DNA of 64,000 nt from an uncultured Pseudomonadota bacterium (GCA_963739695.1 CAVUBB010000005.1:4342-68341); one strand, 5' to 3'; positions 14,645 to 62,596 are shown, counted from the first letter of the stretch. Numbers and translations are program-made. Notes: generated from the letters alone by a model not told the origin.

Positions 14645-14884
14645 TTTCCCCCAAAGAAGTCCGAACGTATTTTTTTGACCATAGCATAAAAGCTATCTGA
14701 TGAAATCAGGTTTTGAATGGTATCATAAAAGCATGAACCCCCTCAACAATAGAAATATTATTTATATTTTATCAATGTTATATAAAACCGTAATAGTACC
14801 GGTCGATCTCCAGAGAAAAAAATCGTGATTTTGGCAATATTCGCATGGTTGCGGTTTTTTTAGAACTTACTCTCGTTGAGATTA

Positions 14885-51018: not shown

Positions 51019-51032
51019 TTGACTTGAATCAA
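51019..51032. promoter_or_regulatory. FNR-type box upstream of hemN
   Basis: TTGACttgaATCAA, centred about 73 nt upstream of the hemN ATG. Confidence 0.65.
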
Positions 51033-51098
51033 TGCGGGTGGTTTTGCGGAAGCCTATCTTCGCATCCAAGATTCGAACCACATTGGGATCGTGTACCG

Positions 51099-52490
51099 AT
51101 GAAACAGACAATCGAGTTCAACCGGGAGCTGGTCAAGCGCTACGACGTTCAGGGGCCTCGTTATACGTCGTATCCCACTGCCGTGCAGTTCACCGAAGAT
51201 TTCGGGCTCAAGGACTACCGCCATCACGCGCATGTCAGCAACGAGGTGCCCATACCCGACCCGCTGTCGGTGTATATCCATATCCCGTTCTGCCGCAGCC
51301 CGTGCTTCTACTGCGCCTGCACCAAGATCATCACCCGCGATTCGGCCAAGGCCGAAGCCTACCTGCAGGGGCTGTACCGCGAGATCGCCATGCAGGCGGC
51401 GCTGTTCGACCCCGACCGCAGCGTGGATCAGCTCCATCTCGGCGGCGGCACCCCCACCTTCCTGGGGCTGCGCCAGTTGAGCGAGCTCATGTCCACCCTG
51501 GACAAGCACTTCAACCTGCGCGAAGACGAAGGCCGCGAGTTCTCCATCGAGATCGACCCGCGCACCGTCTCCGAAGAGACCATCGCGCTGCTCGCCGGGC
51601 TCGGTTTCAACCGCATGAGCGTGGGCGTGCAGGATTTCGCGCCCGAAGTGCAGCAGGCCGTGAACCGCGTGCAGCCGGAAGACGACACCGTGGCGGTCAT
51701 GGAGCAGGCGCGCCATTACGGCTTCGAATCGGTCAGCGTAGACCTTATCTATGGCCTGCCGTTCCAGACCGAGACCGGCTTCGACAACACCATCGGCTCG
51801 GTTATCCAGGCCAAGCCCGATCGCATCGCGGTCTACAGCTACGCGCACCTGCCGCAGCTCTTTAAGCCGCAGCGCCAGATCAAGGCCGAAGACCTGCCCA
51901 CCCCGGAGGTCAAGCTGGAACTGCTGCGCCTGACCATCGAGAAGCTCACCGCGGCGGGCTACGTCTATATCGGCATGGATCACTTCGCCCTGCCCGATGA
52001 CGAACTCGTGATCGCCCAGCGAAAGGGCACCCTGCAGCGCAACTTCCAGGGCTATTCCACCCACGCCCAGACCGACCTCATCGGCCTGGGAGTGAGCGCC
52101 ATCGGCAAGATCGGCGATTCCTACAGCCAGAACCTCAAATCTCTGCCGGACTACTATTCGGCCCTCGATGCCGGCCAACTGCCCATCTGGCGCGGGCTCG
52201 AACTCAACGCCGACGATATCCTCCGCCGCGAGGTCATCCAGCAGATCATGTGCCAGGGCGAGCTGGACTACAGCAAGGTTGGCAGCCGCTTCCAGATCCA
52301 GTTCAAGGACTACTTCGCCGACGAGCTCACCCGGCTCGAACCGCTGCGCGAAGACGGGCTGGTCAAGCTCGAGCCCGGCCGGCTCGAAGTAACCCCCGCC
52401 GGGCGCTTGCTGCTCCGGGCCGTGGCCATGGTCTTCGACGCCTATCTCAATAAGAACGGGAACGTCGAACGATTCTCGAAGGTGATCTGA
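51099..52490 (+). CDS. hemN: oxygen-independent coproporphyrinogen III oxidase (radical SAM)
   Basis: MKQTIEFNRELVKRYDVQGPRYTSYPTA...YIHIPFCRSPCFYCAC...HLGGGTPTFL. Confidence 0.9.
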   Translation: MKQTIEFNRELVKRYDVQGPRYTSYPTAVQFTEDFGLKDYRHHAHVSNEVPIPDPLSVYIHIPFCRSPCFYCACTKIITRDSAKAEAYLQGLYREIAMQAALFDPDRSVDQLHLGGGTPTFLGLRQLSELMSTLDKHFNLREDEGREFSIEIDPRTVSEETIALLAGLGFNRMSVGVQDFAPEVQQAVNRVQPEDDTVAVMEQARHYGFESVSVDLIYGLPFQTETGFDNTIGSVIQAKPDRIAVYSYAHLPQLFKPQRQIKAEDLPTPEVKLELLRLTIEKLTAAGYVYIGMDHFALPDDELVIAQRKGTLQRNFQGYSTHAQTDLIGLGVSAIGKIGDSYSQNLKSLPDYYSALDAGQLPIWRGLELNADDILRREVIQQIMCQGELDYSKVGSRFQIQFKDYFADELTRLEPLREDGLVKLEPGRLEVTPAGRLLLRAVAMVFDAYLNKNGNVERFSKVI

Positions 52491-52677
52491 GGCAGCACCG
52501 TCCGAGAGGTCGTGCCGGCGATATTGCGATGCGCGGCACGCCGAGGGTAGCGCTACGAGAGGCCGAAGAGGGCCCCCGCTCCAGTGGGAATCTGACCCAT
52601 CGGTGTAGCGCAGGCCTTCTTTCTCTCAAATAGTGCAACGAGAGCCGTATCCGTTTCCAGAATGGTGATTTCCTCAA

Positions 52678-52709
52678 GCCCGTCGGCTCATGCCGGCGGG
52701 CGTTTTCTT
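52678..52709 (+). terminator. candidate Rho-independent terminator about 190 nt after hemN
   Basis: GCCCGTCGGC-tcat-GCCGGCGGGC (10-bp stem with one G-U) followed by GTTTTCTT. Confidence 0.5.
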
Positions 52710-52949
52710 GTGGGCCTTCACCTCCATTCGGGGAGGGGGGCTGACCTTTACCAATCCGTGTCGCAAAATGCCCGCGGCGCATGGGCGGGGAGGCTCCGTC
52801 AAGCACCCCAGGGGGCCTTGGAAAGGGTCTAAGTACTTGATTGGGTTAGGTACGTAGTCCACTACGTATAAGTACGTATATTGGTCTAAGTATCCCTTGG
52901 GTAAGGTGTGCCCACGGTCCATTGGGGGGCCAATCAGCGGAGAGTACCG

Positions 52950-53693
52950 ATGATGCAGCAGCAGACCTCTAAAGTCGTGGATTTTGGCGCGCTGCGCCAT
53001 GCCTGCAGCACCTGCTCGCTAAGCGAGCTGTGTGTCGCCATGGGCCTGGACAAGGCGGGCATGGAACAGCTCGACTCCGTCGTCGAGCAATCGGGCCCCC
53101 TCCACGCCGAGGAGCACCTGTTCCGCGTGGGCGACCGCTTCCGTGCGGTCTATGCGGTGCGCTCCGGCTGCCTCAAGACCTACACCGTCGACAGCCTGGG
53201 CCGCGAGCAGGTCCTGGGCTTTCACCTCCCGGGCGAGCTGGTGGGGCTGGATGCGATCTACCCCAATCGCCACCGCTGCAACGGGGTTTCCCTCGATACC
53301 TCCTCGGTCTGCGTCCTGCCCTATGCGGAGCTGAACCGCCTGGCGCATGAGATTCCGAGCCTGCAGCAGCAGATCTTCAGGCTCATGAGCAAGGATATCG
53401 CCAATTCCTCCATGCTCTCGGGCGATTACACCGCCGAAGAGCGCCTGGCCAGCTTCCTGCTGGGCATGTCGCAGCGCCTGCGCCGCCGCGGCTATTCGGA
53501 AACTGATTTCAACCTGGCCATGTCGCGCCGCGATATCGCCAATTACCTGCGTCTCGCCACGGAGACGGTGAGCCGGGTGTTCAAGCGCTTCCAGCTCGAC
53601 GGCCTGATCAAGGTCGAGCGCCGGGCTATCCAGATATTGGATATGGAGCGGTTGAAGGAGATGGCGAGTTGTATTGGGGCGTTTGATGCCTGA
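52950..53693 (+). CDS. fnr: FNR/Anr-type oxygen-sensing Crp-family regulator
   Basis: N-terminal Cys cluster CSTCSLSELC (C-x2-C-x5-C) plus central NRHRCNG Cys. cNMP-like fold. C-terminal HTH RRDIANYLRLATETVSRVFKRF (E--SR recognition helix). GGAGAG SD 6 nt before ATGATG. Confidence 0.9.
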   Translation: MMQQQTSKVVDFGALRHACSTCSLSELCVAMGLDKAGMEQLDSVVEQSGPLHAEEHLFRVGDRFRAVYAVRSGCLKTYTVDSLGREQVLGFHLPGELVGLDAIYPNRHRCNGVSLDTSSVCVLPYAELNRLAHEIPSLQQQIFRLMSKDIANSSMLSGDYTAEERLASFLLGMSQRLRRRGYSETDFNLAMSRRDIANYLRLATETVSRVFKRFQLDGLIKVERRAIQILDMERLKEMASCIGAFDA

Positions 53694-53764
53694 TTGGGGC
53701 GAGACTGCGTCTCGCGCTCGCTAGAAGGTTTGGCGCTTGCCGCGCCAGGGCTGATTTAGGAAAA

Positions 53765-53793
53765 AGCCTCCGCTGGAAAGCGGGGGCTTTTTT
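53765..53793 (+). terminator. Rho-independent terminator after fnr
   Basis: AGCCTCCGC-tggaaa-GCGGGGGCT stem (one G-U) followed by T6 and preceded by A5. Confidence 0.7.
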
Positions 53794-53832
53794 GTTTGGA
53801 GGTTTCGCTCGCCCCTTCGGGGCTTTCAGCGA

Positions 53833-53866
53833 CCTACTTTCCTTTGCGCCGCCAAAGGAAAGTAGG
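53833..53866. repeat. perfect 14-bp-stem hairpin in a GC-rich ORF-poor stretch
   Basis: CCTACTTTCCTTTG-cgccgc-CAAAGGAAAGTAGG. Confidence 0.5.
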
Positions 53867-54299
53867 CAAAGGAAAGGCGGCCCCGGAGGCGGCGCGCTTG
53901 CTTCCGGCTTCGCCTCCAGCGCGTTCCCGGCCGTGCTCGCGTCCTCGCGGCCGCCCATACAGGCCATCCCTGGCCTGGATGGGCGGGCTTCGGCATCCCT
54001 GCCTCGCCCGCACCTGCGGTGCGGCTATTCGCTCCGGGCGCTGCGCTGTCCGGCGCCGTCTACGGGCGGGGGGGCAGTGCCCGACGCTCGGTTCTCTTAG
54101 TTCTCTTAGCGATGCCTACACCCAGGAACCCGGATTCCAGGCGATGTCGCAAAGTTCACTCCTCTCGAATGTGTCTGGGGTGGTCAACTGCTCCATTTCA
54201 ATGCAGGGGGAAAATTGATGACCGCGGGAGATCAAGCCTAGTATCAGTTTTCGCCCCTGGAAACCCGACTCCGCGTTAAGCGAAGGGTAGTCCAATACG

Positions 54300-54485
54300 G
54301 TGGGCGCAAGATAAAGGTGGCGGAAGGCCCCTCAACATCAGGTGTGTGAGCCAGTATGGACTGGCTCTCAACTAATCGGGAGTTCCGAACATAAGTTTAG
54401 GCGAATCCCGAATAGTGAGCGCGCTAGAGCAAGCCCGAGCGCAAGCGTAATCTTGGCGCCTTCCGCCAAAAGTAGTATTGCCGAA
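54300..54485 (-). ncRNA. candidate structured non-coding RNA immediately 3' of the second RT gene
   Basis: No credible ORF between 54110 and 54485. An 11-bp long-range pairing (54318-54328 TGGCGGAAGGC with 54458-54468 GCCTTCCGCCA) encloses nested hairpins: 54348-54367 GAGCCAGT-atgg-ACTGGCTC (perfect 8 bp) and 54376-54410 CGGGA...TCCCG. Strand is assumed from the RT operon. Confidence 0.4.
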
Positions 54486-56537
54486 CTAGTACACCGAACG
54501 CAATTCCTTTCTCTCAAGTAGCTTCCGCAAATTGAGTGCCTTCCATTTTACAAACCAATATGTCGACTCCAGTCGGGAAATGTCCGCAGTTATCTGCTCT
54601 GCGCTTACAGGATCGCTGCTCATTGGGAATGCCTTATAGAATGACTCGAGAAGCCGGCACCGGAGTGCCTCACTAAGGTACGGGCAGGTTATTGTATCTA
54701 GAAAAAGATGAGCCAGTTCCGAATCCGTCTCAAGGTCATGCATGTTTTTATCAGATAATCTTCTAGCAATGACCTTTTCTAGCGATTTCACCAATTCGCC
54801 ATAGTCCGACTTATCTTGAAAGTAATAAATAAACGCAACCAAGTGAAAATAGCTAAGCTGTTCTTCCTTAGAAAGCCAGTCACTAAACCAAGAACTTGGC
54901 ATTGCGTGAGAGGCGCCAAAATCGGCGGTAGCAATGATAATATTCAGTGTCTCCAAGGCGATATACTTATCATCGACCACCGGCGACTTATGGTGTTCGA
55001 TAAACTTCGCAACATTGCGTATGATTTCTGCCCGTATATAGGGCTGCGATGCGTTAAAACTGCGTCCAAAAAATTCGTCAACTATAAGTATAGTCTTTGA
55101 TATTTTCGTAGAGCTCTCTGGCCTTGGGCTAACGAAGTGCAAGAAAAACATTAGATCCAAGTAGACGCATATTACGTCCCTAACCGCATATTCTAGTGTG
55201 TCATCATCTATCCATTTAATTCTCTTCCTTGTTGATTCGATAAGCCGAATTATTCGGTGGCTAAAGGCTGCCTGGCAGAGATTGGCTATAGAAGAATATC
55301 CCTCACCGCTTTGGCTTGCGGCTATGCGAATCTGGTCAATGAGGTTCTTCGTAACGGCGGTGCGACGGCCCTTCAAGTGTTTGGGCTCAAGATTGGGTGC
55401 GCCACCGAATCCTTGGTCGCTATCAGACTCACGAAATAGCTTACCTTCAATGTCCTGAATAGCCTTTATTGCGAAGACTCGTGGTCGATTAATTAAGAAG
55501 GGCCGTTCAAATCTTCTGCTTTTCGTTTCGCCGATATGGAGATTGAAGTCGTTTAATTTGTTCTTTATTGCTTCAGTGACTTTCTTGGCCGTCGCATCAT
55601 CTTCGGCAAACAAGAAATAATCATCCATGAAACGTACAACAGAATATTGTTCTCCATGATTAAATCCGTGCTTTTCCAGGACAGCTGTTAGCACCTGTTT
55701 GTCTAGATGCTGGAATATCATCTCAGCGAAAATGCGGCTGACTTCGTTGCCAACTGGTATTCCATTTGTCTCTAGGTAGTTACTCCTTTGCATGAGCTGG
55801 TCTAGTTGGCTTCCGATTTGATTCTTGAACTGTTTATGAAATTTAGCAAATTTCTTCGTCTTGAGCGCCCAAGATATTGAATGGGAGTAGATGGTGTAAA
55901 AACAGCGCATTACATCCAACGTATAGAGCAAAGGATACTTCTTTTCTAGTTCGATAAACTGCTCACTGTCAAAGAATTTATGTAGCCGACTATATTTGTT
56001 GTAGGCGAAATAAGATGACGCATGACGCGACCAAATCTGCTCGTCAAGAGTATCTATGTCGATTTCTTTGTATTGACGCGTAGGGTCTCGTTCCTTCGCG
56101 AAGAAGGAACTGGACACAGATATCGGTGCCCGTATCGAGAATTCACTGTTGCTACACTGCCAAGTTATAGCGGAATAGAAATCTCTATAGAAAAGAGCCC
56201 AGCTTAATTGCGAGTGCGGGTGGAGCAGTGCTAACCGCCTAGTGTCGCCCGTTTTCTTCCATATTCTATAGTGGTGGGGGACTGTATAACGGACCTGCTT
56301 CCCGACGAGGCGTTGTCCTGCATTCGGTGGCTGAACGATTTTCCTGTAAATATGCTGAACGATCTTACTCAAGCGCGTGTCCGTTGGTGCTGGCGTGACT
56401 GATAGTGCCTCGACACGTTGGGCATTGAGGTAAAACCCATCATTCGAGAATATGATTGGAACATCGCCGGGAGCAGTATCGGTCAAGAGAGCGCGGAGGT
56501 AGTCTTTCTTGTCTAGCTGGATTCGGTGTTTGGTCAT
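54486..56537 (-). CDS. reverse transcriptase 2 (large, Abi/UG-type RT with ~330-aa C-terminal extension; UG8/Drt3b-like by architecture)
   Basis: RT blocks: IWKKTGDTRRLALLHPHSQL (fingers), LYTLDVMRCFYTIYSHSI (motif A), GIPVGNEVSRIFAEMIF (motif B), VVRFMDDYFLFAED (YxDD-type motif C), NLHIGETKS (motif D/E). Likely ATG at 56537 overlaps the RT1 stop as ATGA. AT-rich codon usage. Confidence 0.8.
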   Translation of the reverse strand: MTKHRIQLDKKDYLRALLTDTAPGDVPIIFSNDGFYLNAQRVEALSVTPAPTDTRLSKIVQHIYRKIVQPPNAGQRLVGKQVRYTVPHHYRIWKKTGDTRRLALLHPHSQLSWALFYRDFYSAITWQCSNSEFSIRAPISVSSSFFAKERDPTRQYKEIDIDTLDEQIWSRHASSYFAYNKYSRLHKFFDSEQFIELEKKYPLLYTLDVMRCFYTIYSHSISWALKTKKFAKFHKQFKNQIGSQLDQLMQRSNYLETNGIPVGNEVSRIFAEMIFQHLDKQVLTAVLEKHGFNHGEQYSVVRFMDDYFLFAEDDATAKKVTEAIKNKLNDFNLHIGETKSRRFERPFLINRPRVFAIKAIQDIEGKLFRESDSDQGFGGAPNLEPKHLKGRRTAVTKNLIDQIRIAASQSGEGYSSIANLCQAAFSHRIIRLIESTRKRIKWIDDDTLEYAVRDVICVYLDLMFFLHFVSPRPESSTKISKTILIVDEFFGRSFNASQPYIRAEIIRNVAKFIEHHKSPVVDDKYIALETLNIIIATADFGASHAMPSSWFSDWLSKEEQLSYFHLVAFIYYFQDKSDYGELVKSLEKVIARRLSDKNMHDLETDSELAHLFLDTITCPYLSEALRCRLLESFYKAFPMSSDPVSAEQITADISRLESTYWFVKWKALNLRKLLERKELRSVY

Positions 56538-57811
56538 CGCCAAATCCTCGCAATCTCGTGAAGCCGTGATGGACTGAATTTGCGGCGGATACGCATCTGA
56601 AACCCAGTCACGAACCGGAGGTTGGTTAGTGACTGGCGCTGTCCTGATGTGAGGGAACCTCTCAGAGCTTTGCCAAGACGGCCATGAAGGCCGAGGATGA
56701 AGCAGCGAGTGAATTTGTCTAGCTCCCGGAGAGCCTGCGACCTACTTCCTATTGCGGCGTAGTTATAGTAGATGCCCGCAGAAATAGGCCTACTATCTCT
56801 TTTAGATTTTACGTATCTATTACTAGTTAGAAAAGCCAACCTGTCAAACAACAGATCGTAGTCTCTATTCTTTAGGTAGGCAGAGAAAGACTGCGCAATT
56901 CTGGTTTTAATCTTACGAACTTTGTCGGGTGAAATATCTACATCGACGTAGCGGAATGATGCCAGCGATTGTTTTTTGGAGCTCGCGATATCGAATACAG
57001 TGTATTGGTAGCCAAGAAAACTTACTTGTAGTTTCCTGTCTCCTTCGGGATGGGTAAGAGTGACAGATTGATTGTCCGCTCTGGCTGTTAAGGTTTTCTC
57101 AGTATTAAAGTGCAGTCCAGTAGGTAAATTATCTTCCAGGTGCGTATGGAAATCTTGGTGTCTCTCATTCCCGGTTGTCATGATGAAAATATCGTCAACG
57201 AAGCGCGTGTAGTAAAGCACCCCTTGCTGTCGCACAGCCGCCCGGTCAAATTTAGAGAGTAGTAGATCAGCTAGCATGGGGCTTGTTTCGACGCCTCGCG
57301 GTAGACCGGGTCCAAACAGGCTTTGAAACAGTGAGGTATGAGTAAGAAGTAGCCGCGCGGCATGAGAACCAATAGAACTATGCTGTTGGAGGAGGTGCCG
57401 CAAGCATGAGAGTTGAATAGATTCGAAGAAGTTGCGTATATCAAGACGGTATACGCGGTATTGCGTACCCTCTCGCAGGAAGGTCGATATCTCCCTCGCA
57501 ATATCATTTCGATGCTTATGTGGATGGCATATTGCGTAGCGGAGATGTTCGTTGCAGAGCCTTAGTACGAGTTTCTCAGATAAAGTCGTAACACGGTATG
57601 CAGCTTTTCCAGAGATTCTAGTCTGTTCCAAACTTATCCCAGAACCAAACAATGTTTCCGCCGTGTTGAGCGCCCTCTCGACAACCTGGCCGCGATAGGT
57701 GTCGTCACTGAGCCGTGAGTCGTGATAGAAATCGTCGTCTATGAAGCATCTAGCCAAATTAGAGTAGCTGAAGGATTGGTTCTTCATGGCTATTGTGCAG
57801 GTCCCTTCCAT
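56534..57811 (-). CDS. reverse transcriptase 1 (compact RT; UG3/Drt3a-like by architecture)
   Basis: LSEKLVLRLCNEHL (motif 2), YRLDIRNFFESI (motif A), GLPRGVETSPMLADLLL (motif B), YTRFVDDIFIM (motif C), LHFNTEKT, SFLGYQY (motif 7). 425 aa. An alternative ATG is at 57787. Confidence 0.85.
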   Translation of the reverse strand: MEGTCTIAMKNQSFSYSNLARCFIDDDFYHDSRLSDDTYRGQVVERALNTAETLFGSGISLEQTRISGKAAYRVTTLSEKLVLRLCNEHLRYAICHPHKHRNDIAREISTFLREGTQYRVYRLDIRNFFESIQLSCLRHLLQQHSSIGSHAARLLLTHTSLFQSLFGPGLPRGVETSPMLADLLLSKFDRAAVRQQGVLYYTRFVDDIFIMTTGNERHQDFHTHLEDNLPTGLHFNTEKTLTARADNQSVTLTHPEGDRKLQVSFLGYQYTVFDIASSKKQSLASFRYVDVDISPDKVRKIKTRIAQSFSAYLKNRDYDLLFDRLAFLTSNRYVKSKRDSRPISAGIYYNYAAIGSRSQALRELDKFTRCFILGLHGRLGKALRGSLTSGQRQSLTNLRFVTGFQMRIRRKFSPSRLHEIARIWR

Positions 57812-57896
57812 GAGTAATTAGTTGGAGTAGAGTATAGTAAAAATATTGTGCTTCGGTGCGCATCGCGCCAGATTAAAGATCTTCCAGAGGATAGTG

Positions 57897-57937
57897 AGCG
57901 TAGGTTGGGCTGACAGAGGAAGTGCAACAACTGGCGC
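57897..57937 (+). repeat. 41-bp repeat family B, copy 1
   Basis: AGCGTAGGTTGGGCTGACAGAGGAAGTGCAACAACTGGCGC. About 35/41 identical to 58301..58341. Confidence 0.7.
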
Positions 57938-57960
57938 ATGATTAGATGCCAAATGAGGGT

Positions 57961-57987
57961 AGATCATGGACATCCATGATGTTCGCC
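57961..57987 (+). repeat. repeat family A core, copy 1 (variant with 1-nt insertion)
   Basis: AGATCATGGACATCCATGATGTTCGCC, 46 nt upstream of the ATG at 58007. Confidence 0.65.
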
Positions 57988-58006
57988 ATTAGGTAAGGAA
58001 GTCAGA

Positions 58007-58198
58007 ATGACAACGAAAAGGCGCATTCTCATCTTTTTGGCAACTCTTACATTCTTCGCTTTATCGATTCTGTTTGGTCTACACACCAAATATGGAGACC
58101 CATGGGGTACACCGGGGACGGATTGGGGGCGAGTGATCTTATCAGGGGTGTTCGGTTTAGCTGGGGTGGGGTCCTTCTTCCTGGCATTGGGCCGGTGA
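58007..58198 (+). CDS. small two-TM membrane protein (hypothetical)
   Basis: 63 aa: ILIFLATLTFFALSILFGL...VILSGVFGLAGVGSFFLAL. Good SD (AAGGAAG) 7 nt upstream. Confidence 0.5.
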   Translation: MTTKRRILIFLATLTFFALSILFGLHTKYGDPWGTPGTDWGRVILSGVFGLAGVGSFFLALGR

Positions 58199-58300
58199 CG
58201 AATGTAGCTCTCGACACCCACTATCTGCATTGCAGCGGGTCGGAAGCGGATATTTGGGGTCAGAGTAAAAACTCTAGGGTGCAGGAGATGCGCTGCTAGC

Positions 58301-58341
58301 AGCGTAGGTTGGGCTGACGGAGGAGGCCCAACAATTGGCGC
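58301..58341 (+). repeat. 41-bp repeat family B, copy 2
   Basis: AGCGTAGGTTGGGCTGACGGAGGAGGCCCAACAATTGGCGC. Contains the hairpin GGTTGGGC-N11-GCCCAACa. Confidence 0.7.
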
Positions 58342-58405
58342 TAGAATACAAGCCTTTCTAGCCACGTGCGCCGGCATGGGATTGGGGATGGATACATTAG
58401 ACAAT

Positions 58406-58462
58406 AGATCTGGACACCCATTACTCTCAAAGGCTCCGAAAGAGAGCTAAGTGACTGATTGG
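58406..58462 (+). repeat. repeat family A, long (57-bp) copy 2
   Basis: AGATCTGGACACCCATTACTCTCAAAGGCTCCGAAAGAGAGCTAAGTGACTGATTGG, identical to 58619..58675. Confidence 0.85.
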
Positions 58463-58586
58463 GGCATGATTTCAGTGGGGTGATGGCTGATCGGGGTCGG
58501 ATCAGCATAAGTAGCCACATCTGGGCTTCGCTCAATATCATTAAGGGTGCTGAGGTCCGGTCTCGCCAGAAGTCGAGGTACGAGAT

Positions 58587-58612
58587 AGATCTGGACACCC
58601 ATAATTCTCGAA
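58587..58612 (+). repeat. repeat family A core, copy 3
   Basis: AGATCTGGACACCCATAATTCTCGAA, directly abutting copy 4. Confidence 0.75.
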
Positions 58613-58618
58613 TGGGCT

Positions 58619-58675
58619 AGATCTGGACACCCATTACTCTCAAAGGCTCCGAAAGAGAGCTAAGTGACTGATTGG
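58619..58675 (+). repeat. repeat family A, long (57-bp) copy 4
   Basis: Identical 57-mer to 58406..58462. Confidence 0.85.
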
Positions 58676-58719
58676 CGGCATAATGAATAGGATTGGGGAA
58701 CAGGGTAGGGAGCCCCGGA

Positions 58720-59127
58720 GTGTATAGAGAATTTCTTCTCAGCGCGGTTGTATCGGCTGTCTACACCACTTTCTTGCTCACGCTGCTGGCCACGGCCGTC
58801 ATCTTGAGAGGAGCGTGTCTGTATACATTCTGGCTGCCTCGGGAGTTTCAGATGCTCAGCCCATTTTGGGTAACCGTTGTTGCAGCAATTAGCCTTTCGC
58901 TCTGGGCATTCGCTGGGCTGCGCCGGGCTATCCGACAGCGGCGGAAGGCGGCGTGGCCGGTGCTGTATCACATGTTCGCGGTTATATGCCTGGTATGGTG
59001 GCTGTATGATCTGCATGGGTTCTGGCGCGCCATGGAGTATGAGCGAGGCGTTATCCCGGCTGCGCAATATTTCACCAACGGCATTCCTGGAATCGGAACC
59101 AAGCCATATCTGTGCCATGGGTGGTAG
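58720..59127 (+). CDS. hypothetical four-TM membrane protein
   Basis: ORF 58693..59127 has four hydrophobic segments (LLSAVVSAVYTTFLLTLLATAVIL, WVTVVAAISLSLWAFAGL, VLYHMFAVICLVWWLY ...). Start is uncertain (GTG 58720 or TTG 58693). Confidence 0.45.
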   Translation: MYREFLLSAVVSAVYTTFLLTLLATAVILRGACLYTFWLPREFQMLSPFWVTVVAAISLSLWAFAGLRRAIRQRRKAAWPVLYHMFAVICLVWWLYDLHGFWRAMEYERGVIPAAQYFTNGIPGIGTKPYLCHGW

Positions 59128-59131
59128 AAGT

Positions 59132-59158
59132 AGATCTGGACATCCATGATTCTCACGA
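59132..59158 (+). repeat. repeat family A core, copy 5
   Basis: AGATCTGGACATCCATGATTCTCACGA, 47 nt upstream of the ATG at 59179. Confidence 0.75.
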
Positions 59159-59178
59159 CATCCAGGATTGGGGGCAAC

Positions 59179-59964
59179 ATGCGAAGACATTTTCTTCTTG
59201 TTCTGACGGCAGCCATGGTTGCCGGTTGTGCGCAGCAGGCTGTGCGGCCAGCGCAACAGAAAACAGCGCAACCACGGGCATTCATAGATCGGAGCGCAAT
59301 CTTCTATCCGAAATCCGGCGATAAGTTCGATCTGATTCGAGAATACACGTATGCCAACGTCGCCTCAGGCATTCAATTGACGTACGAGGCTGAAGATCTT
59401 CCTTCCGCAAAGATCGACATCTTCGTCTACCCGGTCGGCGATGTGCCCGAGGACAAGGCATTGGCTATCGATATGAAGGATGTCCAGACAGGTGTCGAAG
59501 GCATGGTAAGGCAGGGCAGGTACAGCGAAGTCCAGTATGGGGCATTGTCCGATTTCAATGTGCCGCTCGGCAAGGACAGCACTTTGTCCGGTAAGAGGCA
59601 GCTCCTCACGTTCGATCTGGATGGGACGCCCATGGTCTCGGCGGCCTATCTTGCGTACAAGCAGCTTTATCTTTTCGAGCTGCGGATAACTTCGGCAGCG
59701 GTTACCGAGCAGCAGCTGGCACCCGTCGGAGACCGGATTGCCACTGAAGCCTTTCGCAAGATTCACATCCTGAGTGAAGGAAAATGTGCATCTCCCACCG
59801 TGGAGGTCGGGAAAAACGCAGATCAGCTGAGGCAATCGCTCATGGCCGCGATGAAGCATGTCCTCGCAGTATCATGTACGACTGAGTTTCAACCAGGCGC
59901 GCTCAAGCCTGGCGACAATGAAGATGTGACGGTCCTCACGTTCCGGCCTCAGGACTGGAATTAG
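59179..59964 (+). CDS. hypothetical lipoprotein
   Basis: MRRHFLLVLTAAMVAGCAQQ (lipobox VAGC). 261 aa. No family recognised. Confidence 0.6.
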   Translation: MRRHFLLVLTAAMVAGCAQQAVRPAQQKTAQPRAFIDRSAIFYPKSGDKFDLIREYTYANVASGIQLTYEAEDLPSAKIDIFVYPVGDVPEDKALAIDMKDVQTGVEGMVRQGRYSEVQYGALSDFNVPLGKDSTLSGKRQLLTFDLDGTPMVSAAYLAYKQLYLFELRITSAAVTEQQLAPVGDRIATEAFRKIHILSEGKCASPTVEVGKNADQLRQSLMAAMKHVLAVSCTTEFQPGALKPGDNEDVTVLTFRPQDWN

Positions 59965-59975
59965 TCGGTTGGACA

Positions 59976-60004
59976 AGATCTGGACCCCATAATTCGCAAA
60001 GGCG
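59976..60004 (+). repeat. repeat family A core, copy 6 (variant with 1-nt deletion)
   Basis: AGATCTGGACCCCATAATTCGCAAAGGCG, 12 nt after the lipoprotein stop. Confidence 0.7.
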
Positions 60005-60159
60005 CCAGAAATGCGCCCATATGGGCAGGTCTTTGACTCATGATTGCTCAACCGTCAGCAGCGGTATCCGCAATCACGACCCAAAGACCTGTTTCCCCTT
60101 GTTTCCAGTAGCGCCGTGGCGGTGGTTTGTCGTCCTCAAACCATGGCAGGCGTTACTCG

Positions 60160-60783
60160 CTATTGGTTGTTCGGCAGCACGACGATGTGGACGGTTGCCG
60201 ATGCCCACGGCGCGCCGTAGTAAGTGGCCTCCCAGCGGCTGATGTACTCGCCGGGGGCGAGTTGGGTGATGAACGCGCGCTGTTGATACAAGGTCAGGCC
60301 CCAGTCGGGTCGGTGCATCTGTTTGTAGCCGGTGCGATCGAGTGACTGCTCTGTCAGTGGGCCACCCACCGGACCGAACCACACGCGGTCTTCATACGCG
60401 TCGGTGTCGGCGATCGCTCCGGCCAGGGTGAATCCCCAGTTCTTGTAGTCGAAAAGATAGACGATGCCGCCGACGATGAAGTCACCGCTGTGGAAGGTGT
60501 AGGTGGCGCCGTCGGCGAATACGCGGAACTGGCAGTGCAGGGTGCCGCCGCCGACGCCGGCGCGTTGATTGCGCAGCGCGAAGTCGGTTGACTGGACATA
60601 GCCCACGGGCAGTGCCTGTAGGGTCGAGCTGGCTTCGCCCCAGCCGCAGTGGGTGTCGTCTTTGGCGAAGACCGTCTGGCTGAGGACGATCGACAACAGC
60701 AACGTGACCGTTGCCGCTACCCGCGCCATGACCGCGGCGGTGGCGATCAGCGGCTTTGCCGGGGTGAGATTTGAATGCGTCAT
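60160..60783 (-). CDS. hypothetical secreted protein
   Basis: MTHSNLTPAKPLIATAAVMARVAATVTLLLSIVLSQTVFA signal-like N-terminus. High G+C like the host background. Confidence 0.6.
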   Translation of the reverse strand: MTHSNLTPAKPLIATAAVMARVAATVTLLLSIVLSQTVFAKDDTHCGWGEASSTLQALPVGYVQSTDFALRNQRAGVGGGTLHCQFRVFADGATYTFHSGDFIVGGIVYLFDYKNWGFTLAGAIADTDAYEDRVWFGPVGGPLTEQSLDRTGYKQMHRPDWGLTLYQQRAFITQLAPGEYISRWEATYYGAPWASATVHIVVLPNNQ

Positions 60784-62476: not shown

Positions 62477-62596
62477 TCGAGCCGCCCGATGAAGATCGGC
62501 ACACGCATGATTGTCGAAAGCGCCAATTGTGCTTACGAGATGGGTGCCCGGATCTTGAGCCTTGGGATCGGATCCAGGCAGGTGCGGTCGAAGGTC

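Follow-up and report, generated by a model that had tools for sequence, protein, structure and literature searches.

We analysed a stretch of 64,000 nucleotides (nt) from an uncultured Pseudomonadota bacterium (GCA_963739695.1, CAVUBB010000005.1:4342-68341), hereafter the window, in which two adjacent reverse transcriptase (RT) genes lie on the minus strand and are followed by a structured non-coding RNA (ncRNA). We are highly confident that this locus is a complete, divergent defence-associated reverse transcriptase type 3 (DRT3) system, made up of drt3a (UG3), drt3b (UG8) and a cis-encoded ncRNA, and carried in a horizontally acquired insert of about 6 kb with a low guanine-plus-cytosine (GC) content. 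A preliminary description of the window had reported two minus-strand open reading frames (ORFs) of 425 and about 683 amino acids (aa) overlapping as ATGA, and both were recovered as follows:

56534-57811, minus strand: drt3a (UG3, class 2 RT), 425 aa from an ATG start, with PADLOC, NCBIfam and PDB matches
57205-57191, minus strand: catalytic box RFVDD of drt3a, read in the translation
54486-56537, minus strand: drt3b (UG8), 683 aa when started at the ATG of 56537, with full-length PADLOC, NCBIfam and PDB matches

The ATG of drt3b (56537-56535) overlaps the TGA of drt3a (56536-56534), forming the ATGA at 56537-56534. If a TTG is taken as the start, the drt3b ORF covers 54486-56543 on the minus strand and encodes 685 aa. 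For Drt3a an alternative start may be Met9, the ATG at 57787, because the profile homology begins only at this residue. All the RT motifs quoted previously are present in the translations, namely LDIRNFFESI, GLPRG and RFVDD in Drt3a and LDVMRCFYTI, GIPVG and RFMDD in Drt3b, and each RT has both catalytic aspartates. In addition, the profile searches that had been suggested as a check gave matches for the two proteins, which exceed the Pfam RVT_1 cut-off of 29.6 bits (55.9 bits for Drt3a, 47.7 bits for Drt3b) and are recognized by their respective PADLOC profiles. Drt3a matches the PADLOC Drt3a profile at 4.8e-123 (profile positions 1-415 of 417 aligned with residues 9-425), the NCBIfam equivalog NF041747 with 339.6 bits (cut-off 200) and the solved Drt3a, PDB 9z6y_A, over its full length at 1.7e-52; the runner-up in the PADLOC search was RT_UG17/DRT10 (class 2), at 8.9e-23. 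Drt3b matches the PADLOC Drt3b profile end to end at 6.3e-183 (residues 5-685), NF041748 with 577.6 bits (cut-off 350), PDB 9z6y_H over the whole length at 1.1e-97 and PDB 26cz, a SUMO-fused Drt3b, in two aligned stretches at 3.9e-73. Its runner-up profiles in the PADLOC search belong to class 1 (DRT6, UG14, AbiP2, DRT4 and AbiK), with 1e-43 to 1e-24 for DRT6, AbiP2, DRT4 and AbiK. For both RTs these runners-up agree with the UG/Abi phylogeny and with a placement in UG3 and UG8. The second RT had also been credited with some 330 extra residues lacking any known motif; this C-terminal part does exist, but it aligns throughout with the C-terminal part of solved Drt3b, which in the Escherichia coli system (EcoDRT3) consists of an alpha-Rep domain and a C-terminal tail (PMC13174585).

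The gene arrangement was compared with that of other bacteria. A scan with one genome per species yielded 447 loci with Drt3b relatives; 80 of them were retrieved, and all counts of loci given here refer to these. In every one of the 80 loci, which come from diverse bacteria, the gene immediately upstream of drt3b is a same-strand drt3a, and Drt3a ends where Drt3b begins. The orphan ORFs that accompany the genes in the insert (see below) were found in none of the 80 other DRT3 loci. Since the pair is always adjacent and the neighbouring orphan ORFs never recur, the module is self-contained, as described for DRT3.

Downstream of the two genes, the preliminary description had placed a structured tail of about 375 nt. 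This holds for 151 nt (54468-54318), whose fold has z = -5.15 and was equalled by 0 of 200 shuffles, but not for the 208 nt that follow (54317-54110), with z = -0.32 and 69 of 200 shuffles as good. The ncRNA was delimited with a covariance model, R1, built on 8 other DRT3 loci with the window left out, and the following elements could be assigned:

54318-54468, minus strand: DRT3 ncRNA, 151 nt, beginning 18 nt past the drt3b stop (model R1, covariation and fold)
54468-54455 paired with 54331-54318, minus strand: closing stem P1 of the ncRNA (fold and model)
54456-54444, minus strand: conserved 5' box of the ncRNA, CCAAGAUUACGCU
54446-54419, 54418-54368 and 54367-54348, minus strand: stem-loops SL1, SL2 and SL3, respectively
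54342-54347, minus strand: 5'-ACACAC-3', predicted template of Drt3a, single-stranded, immediately 3' of SL3, with the conserved CUGAUGUUGAGG after it
54110-54317, minus strand: rest of the tail described earlier, weakly folded, outside R1, its sequence past P1 not conserved in homologues

The last of these segments is best read as spacer or island-junction DNA and no part of the ncRNA. When R1 was run on the 64-kb window, it gave one significant match, at 54318-54468 on the minus strand (42.8 bits, E = 1.5e-9), covering model positions 1-159 of 159. A second match, at 14696-14803 on the minus strand (9.4 bits, E = 0.72), lies in a region of 29% GC, contains no ACACAC and has no RT near it, and was taken as chance. 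With regard to the construction of the model, MAFFT, applied to 49 downstream regions and later to 15, aligned P1 and scrambled the inner hairpins, which vary in length; therefore, an 8-sequence sub-clade was used as the seed. RNAalifold on 15 sequences recovered the closing stem, with compensatory changes in 12 of 13 pairs, and on the 8-sequence sub-clade it gave 38 pairs, of which 21 had changed in a compensatory way. Across 20 loci matched at E < 0.01, in an alignment that had itself been fitted to R1, 89.1% of the cells were paired versus 37-46% with slid partners, 34 of the 38 pairs had changed on both sides, and 0 of 500 shuffles reached the observed values. Single-sequence folds of the homologues show a long closing stem, three inner stem-loops and the ACACAC in a single-stranded joint past the last hairpin, followed by CUGAUGYUGAGG. 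In the window this motif begins at +139 from the drt3b stop, and it occurs between +105 and +223 in all 79 other loci that could be read (79/79), against a background of 1.6% of 131-nt windows in the same loci. The co-occurrence of the gene pair with a conserved downstream element, proposed earlier as a check, was in this way observed. Rfam 15, searched with the tail and with the whole window, did not match any family to the ncRNA, and because of this the DRT3 ncRNA will go unannotated if no dedicated model is applied. A link between the model and the experimental E. coli locus was not made, as the E. coli and Enterobacter homologues P0060, P0063 and P0020 are not the 26cz protein.

Residues with a role assigned in solved Drt3b proteins were located by alignment:

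56463-56465, minus strand: Asp25 of Drt3b, dATP gate, equivalent to Glu22 of EcoDRT3b and Glu26 of 9z6y (PGDVP aligned with PYEVP/PYETP)
55734-55736, minus strand: Arg268 of Drt3b, dCTP specificity switch, equivalent to Arg241 of EcoDRT3b and Arg253 of 9z6y
55620-55631, minus strand: catalytic box F303-M304-D305-D306 of Drt3b (FMDD)
54489-54491, minus strand: Tyr683, last residue of Drt3b, equivalent to the DNA-priming Tyr666 of EcoDRT3b and aligned with the terminal Tyr of 9z6y_H and 26cz

The gate position is occupied by Glu in 50 and by Asp in 30 of the 80 other loci, and E22D is a natural variant that keeps partial poly(dCdA) synthesis in EcoDRT3 (PMC13174585). The equivalent of Arg268 is present in 80/80 loci, Arg100 aligns with Arg71 of EcoDRT3b and is found in 79/80, and Asp208 and Phe213 align with Asp182 and Phe187 of EcoDRT3b, both of them kept. 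Furthermore, the terminal Tyr occurs in 78/80 loci and is invariant in alignment A1. In Drt3a, the FVDD box is a common variant, since the first position is Phe in 34 and Tyr in 44 of 80 homologous loci.

The mechanism of DRT3 has been worked out on other members of the family. According to Wang et al. 2026 (PMC13174585), DRT3a copies the conserved 5'-ACACAC-3' of an ncRNA encoded downstream of drt3b into poly(dTdG), and DRT3b, primed on its Tyr666, produces poly(dCdA) independently of any nucleic-acid template, the alternation of A and C being enforced by Glu22 and Arg241 plus Arg71. In the same study, the two strands form double-stranded DNA that is restrained by RecBCD, and the phage inhibitor Gam triggers abortive infection. 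According to PMC13213688 and PMC13314766, Deng et al. 2026 described a D3-symmetric 6:6:6 complex of Drt3a, Drt3b and ncRNA, in which Glu26 and Arg253 make the selection.

By homology with these systems, the operon and its 3' ncRNA would be transcribed from the minus strand, and Drt3a would bind the ncRNA and repeatedly copy the single-stranded ACACAC (54347-54342), with SL3 as the 5' boundary, to give poly(dT-dG). Drt3b would prime on its own Tyr683 and, untemplated by any nucleic acid, synthesize poly(dC-dA), in which Asp25 (Glu in E. coli) together with Arg268 would impose the alternation of A and C. Both products would then anneal into a poly(GT/AC) duplex DNA, normally cleared by the RecBCD of the host. 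Phage RecBCD inhibitors, such as Gam, would allow the duplex to build up and lead to growth arrest (abortive infection).

As regards its location, the module belongs to a region that differs in composition from the genes around it:

54100-60150, no strand assigned: low-GC insert of about 6 kb with DRT3, orphan ORFs and repeats of its own (GC content, flank annotation and repeats)

The greater AT-richness of the block relative to the respiratory flank, noted previously by eye, was verified: the GC content is 0.40-0.53 over 54250-58250 versus 0.60-0.66 in the hemN/anr flank. For the whole insert it is 0.40-0.56, staying below about 0.56 until about 60.1 kb. On one side the insert is flanked by ccoN, hemN and an FNR/Anr-type regulator, and on the other by a winged-helix/TPR regulator and an acyl-CoA ligase. 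Horizontal acquisition is the best explanation for the insert. No tRNA was found in the 64-kb window. Three orphan ORFs lie on the plus strand of the insert, at 58007-58198, 58693-59127 and 59146-59964.

The insert also carries a family of repeats, TAGATCTGGACAYCCAT.A.TCTC on the plus strand, with copies at 58204, 58404, 58585, 58617, 59130 and about 59973. Those at 58204, 59130 and about 59973 are each immediately 3' of an orphan ORF, which gives a cassette-like layout, and elsewhere in the 64 kb the family has a single match, with 3 mismatches, at 62540. An exact duplicate of 58 nt is present (58405-58462 and 58618-58675), together with a 54-nt repeat, 81% identical between its two copies, just upstream of drt3a (57897-57950) and at 58301-58354; this one folds into a short hairpin that has GTTGGGC/GCCCAAC at the apex. 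An integron attC reading of the insert repeats was considered, no integrase being searched for, and not adopted: the GTTGGGC/GCCCAAC cores resemble core sites but sit at the apex of the hairpin, not at its base. Near the right end of the insert, an inverted repeat (60026-60091; 22 nt, 86% complementary, with a 22-nt spacer) may mark the island boundary. Between anr and the insert, the segment 53729-54013 is GC-rich, repeat-like and highly structured, with sub-threshold Rfam matches to ncS011 (31 bits) and TwoAYGGAY (33.9 bits), and a hairpin resembling a bidirectional terminator lies at about 53766-53795.

Farther away, positions 1-28000 of the window have a GC content of 0.43-0.57 and encode two ABC exporters, a beta-CASP/RMMBL nuclease, an HD-domain response regulator, a hybrid histidine kinase and a B12-binding radical SAM protein. 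These first 28 kb were considered as a defence island and rejected as such, since transporters and signalling genes were what we found and the 'mad3' matches reflect generic ABC ATPase similarity. Concerning the host, the hemN-anr-ccoN context could recall Pseudomonas. This was ruled out by HemN, encoded in the flank at 51024-53693 together with the FNR/Anr regulator, which is at most 66% identical to any of 5.8 billion proteins and whose few named relatives come from uncultured Proteobacteria and from metagenome-assembled genomes of Steroidobacteraceae. For the same two reasons, the host is a poorly sampled proteobacterial lineage.

Several observations weigh against assigning to this locus the behaviour of a standard DRT3. 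For both Drt3a and Drt3b, identity to the other known homologues does not exceed 40%. In public data the exact Drt3b sequence occurs on one 176-kb contig, and there is a second, 100% identical 4.3-kb assembly; after these the next-closest Drt3b has 39-40% identity. The catalytic box of Drt3b is unusual, given that all of the 80 other loci have Y[V/I]D[D/N] (V in 78, I in 2), and that among database homologues YV is found in 116/120 and FM only in the window protein. Tyr276 and Val277 of EcoDRT3b touch the -1 nucleotide at its sugar (PMC13174585), and because of this the activity of the Drt3b carrying FMDD could be altered. A consensus scan gave no sigma-70-like promoter immediately 5' of drt3a and no intrinsic terminator just past the ncRNA. 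Moreover, to our knowledge, the downstream killing step of DRT3 is not yet settled in the literature. Finally, the locus is known here from its sequence alone: at that level, all three parts, with their key residues and motifs, establish its identity and completeness, and its products, trigger and phenotype would be those expected by homology.

These observations can be accommodated in different ways. One is that the locus represents a sub-lineage of DRT3 that differs in function, its polymerase properties or trigger being altered, on a small mobile element not yet described; it draws on the identity of at most 40%, on an FMDD box absent from about 200 other homologues and on an insert with its own cassette-like repeats, and we regard it as unlikely.

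Another explanation, in our judgement quite unlikely, is that the locus is DRT3 by descent yet a catalytically impaired or decaying relic of an orphan lineage, which no longer defends its host as a consequence of the Y-to-F and V-to-M changes in the Drt3b box. The uniqueness of FMDD among about 200 homologues, the contact of both changed positions with the sugar of the -1 nucleotide in EcoDRT3b (PMC13174585) and the lack of a clear promoter in the consensus scan would agree with decay. Nevertheless, both ORFs are intact and full length, their ATGA coupling is kept, every other invariant residue is retained, and the ncRNA preserves the exact ACACAC together with a well-paired structure. Active RTs of other kinds carry F or Y at the first position of the box and M at the next (YMDD), and the homologues of Drt3a swap F and Y freely (34 F versus 44 Y). 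By analogy, we judge FMDD to be compatible with activity.

A DRT3 variant with a different output or trigger, in which divergence and FMDD would change the length or composition of the product or its activation with respect to E. coli DRT3, seems to us very improbable. The identity of at most 40% to all relatives, the unique catalytic box and the distant, uncultured lineage of the host speak for it; however, the template is identical (ACACAC), the residues dictating the sequence of the protein-templated strand (D/E25, R268 and R100) are conserved, and the complementarity of the two strands constrains each of them.

That the locus is something other than DRT3, either a dual-RT defence system not described before or a portion of a retron, a group II intron or a diversity-generating retroelement (DGR), is extremely improbable, since for this there are only generic RT domains and weak sub-threshold profile matches to retron and group II RTs (56.6 bits for the retron St85 RT, cut-off 235; 58.7 bits for the group II maturase TIGR04416, cut-off 300), whereas Drt3a and Drt3b each exceed the cut-offs of their own families. 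In agreement with the preliminary description, which saw no retron-type msr/msd repeats and no group II intron context, Rfam at E <= 1 over 53000-60500 gave no match to retron msr, to group II introns or to any other RNA family save the weak ones in 53729-54013. No DGR template/variable repeat pair was found in 53700-60400, where only short island repeats (D1-D5) occur, with differences that are not A-specific.

We therefore return to DRT3. The preliminary description had proposed either DRT3 (UG3, UG8 and an ncRNA) or a new dual-RT system. Of the outcomes that it listed as refuting, neither a failure to match RT profiles, nor a lack of synteny, nor a retron, group II intron or DGR context was observed. 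The former is upheld by profile scores above the cut-offs, by the structure matches, by a gene order shared with 80/80 loci and by the ncRNA with its ACACAC; the latter is rejected by the profile, synteny and ncRNA results, because every sequence-testable feature of DRT3 was found.

The DRT3 family is already defined, and its mechanism has been solved structurally and biochemically elsewhere; likewise, the standard pipelines, PADLOC and the NCBI PGAP equivalogs, would name both genes. What the present locus adds is a deep-branching DRT3 from an uncultured proteobacterium. The ACACAC, the architecture of the ncRNA and the gate and priming residues of Drt3b persist at about 35-40% protein identity, and this supports the generality of the published mechanism. 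In addition, the locus offers a Drt3b active site that naturally reads FMDD, a variant that could inform structure-function work. The points that retain interest are this unique box, the depth of the divergence and the repeats of the insert.

Among the known systems, the closest is the DRT3 of 9z6y/9z6z (Deng et al. 2026, cited by PMC13213688 and PMC13314766). Both of its proteins align end to end with ours, and the gene order, the ACACAC-bearing ncRNA, the equivalent of Arg253 and the terminal Tyr are shared; the window differs in having Asp at the position of Glu26, and FMDD in Drt3b and FVDD in Drt3a in place of YVDD. EcoDRT3 (PMC13174585; Drt3b 26cz; the system of Gao et al. 2020) has the same Drt3b layout, with an RT-like domain, an alpha-Rep-aligned part and a tail with the priming Tyr. 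The equivalents of R71, D182, F187 and R241 are kept, and an ncRNA past drt3b carries the ACACAC beside a stem-loop; nevertheless, its Drt3b is more distant than that of 9z6y (3.9e-73), and the window has D in place of E22. It should be noted that a 6:6:6 particle was solved for 9z6y/9z6z, and that the Gam/RecBCD trigger and the GreA dependence are features of EcoDRT3, whereas the system of the window is known to us through its genes.

Other families share single traits with one or the other RT. DRT10 (UG17) and DRT9, in which a class 2 RT and an ncRNA produce tandem-repeat or homopolymer DNA, resemble Drt3a in making repeated copies of a short ncRNA template that a stem-loop delimits. They have, however, a single RT, other partners (SLATT in DRT10) and other template motifs, and the Drt3a of the window matches the Drt3a profile about 100 orders of magnitude better than RT_UG17. 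AbiK, AbiP2, DRT4 and DRT6, which are class 1, protein-primed and template-independent, share with Drt3b an alpha-helical C-terminal domain and priming on Tyr. Unlike Drt3b, which has specific gate residues and is always found with Drt3a and the ncRNA, these enzymes act alone and synthesize random or other DNA.

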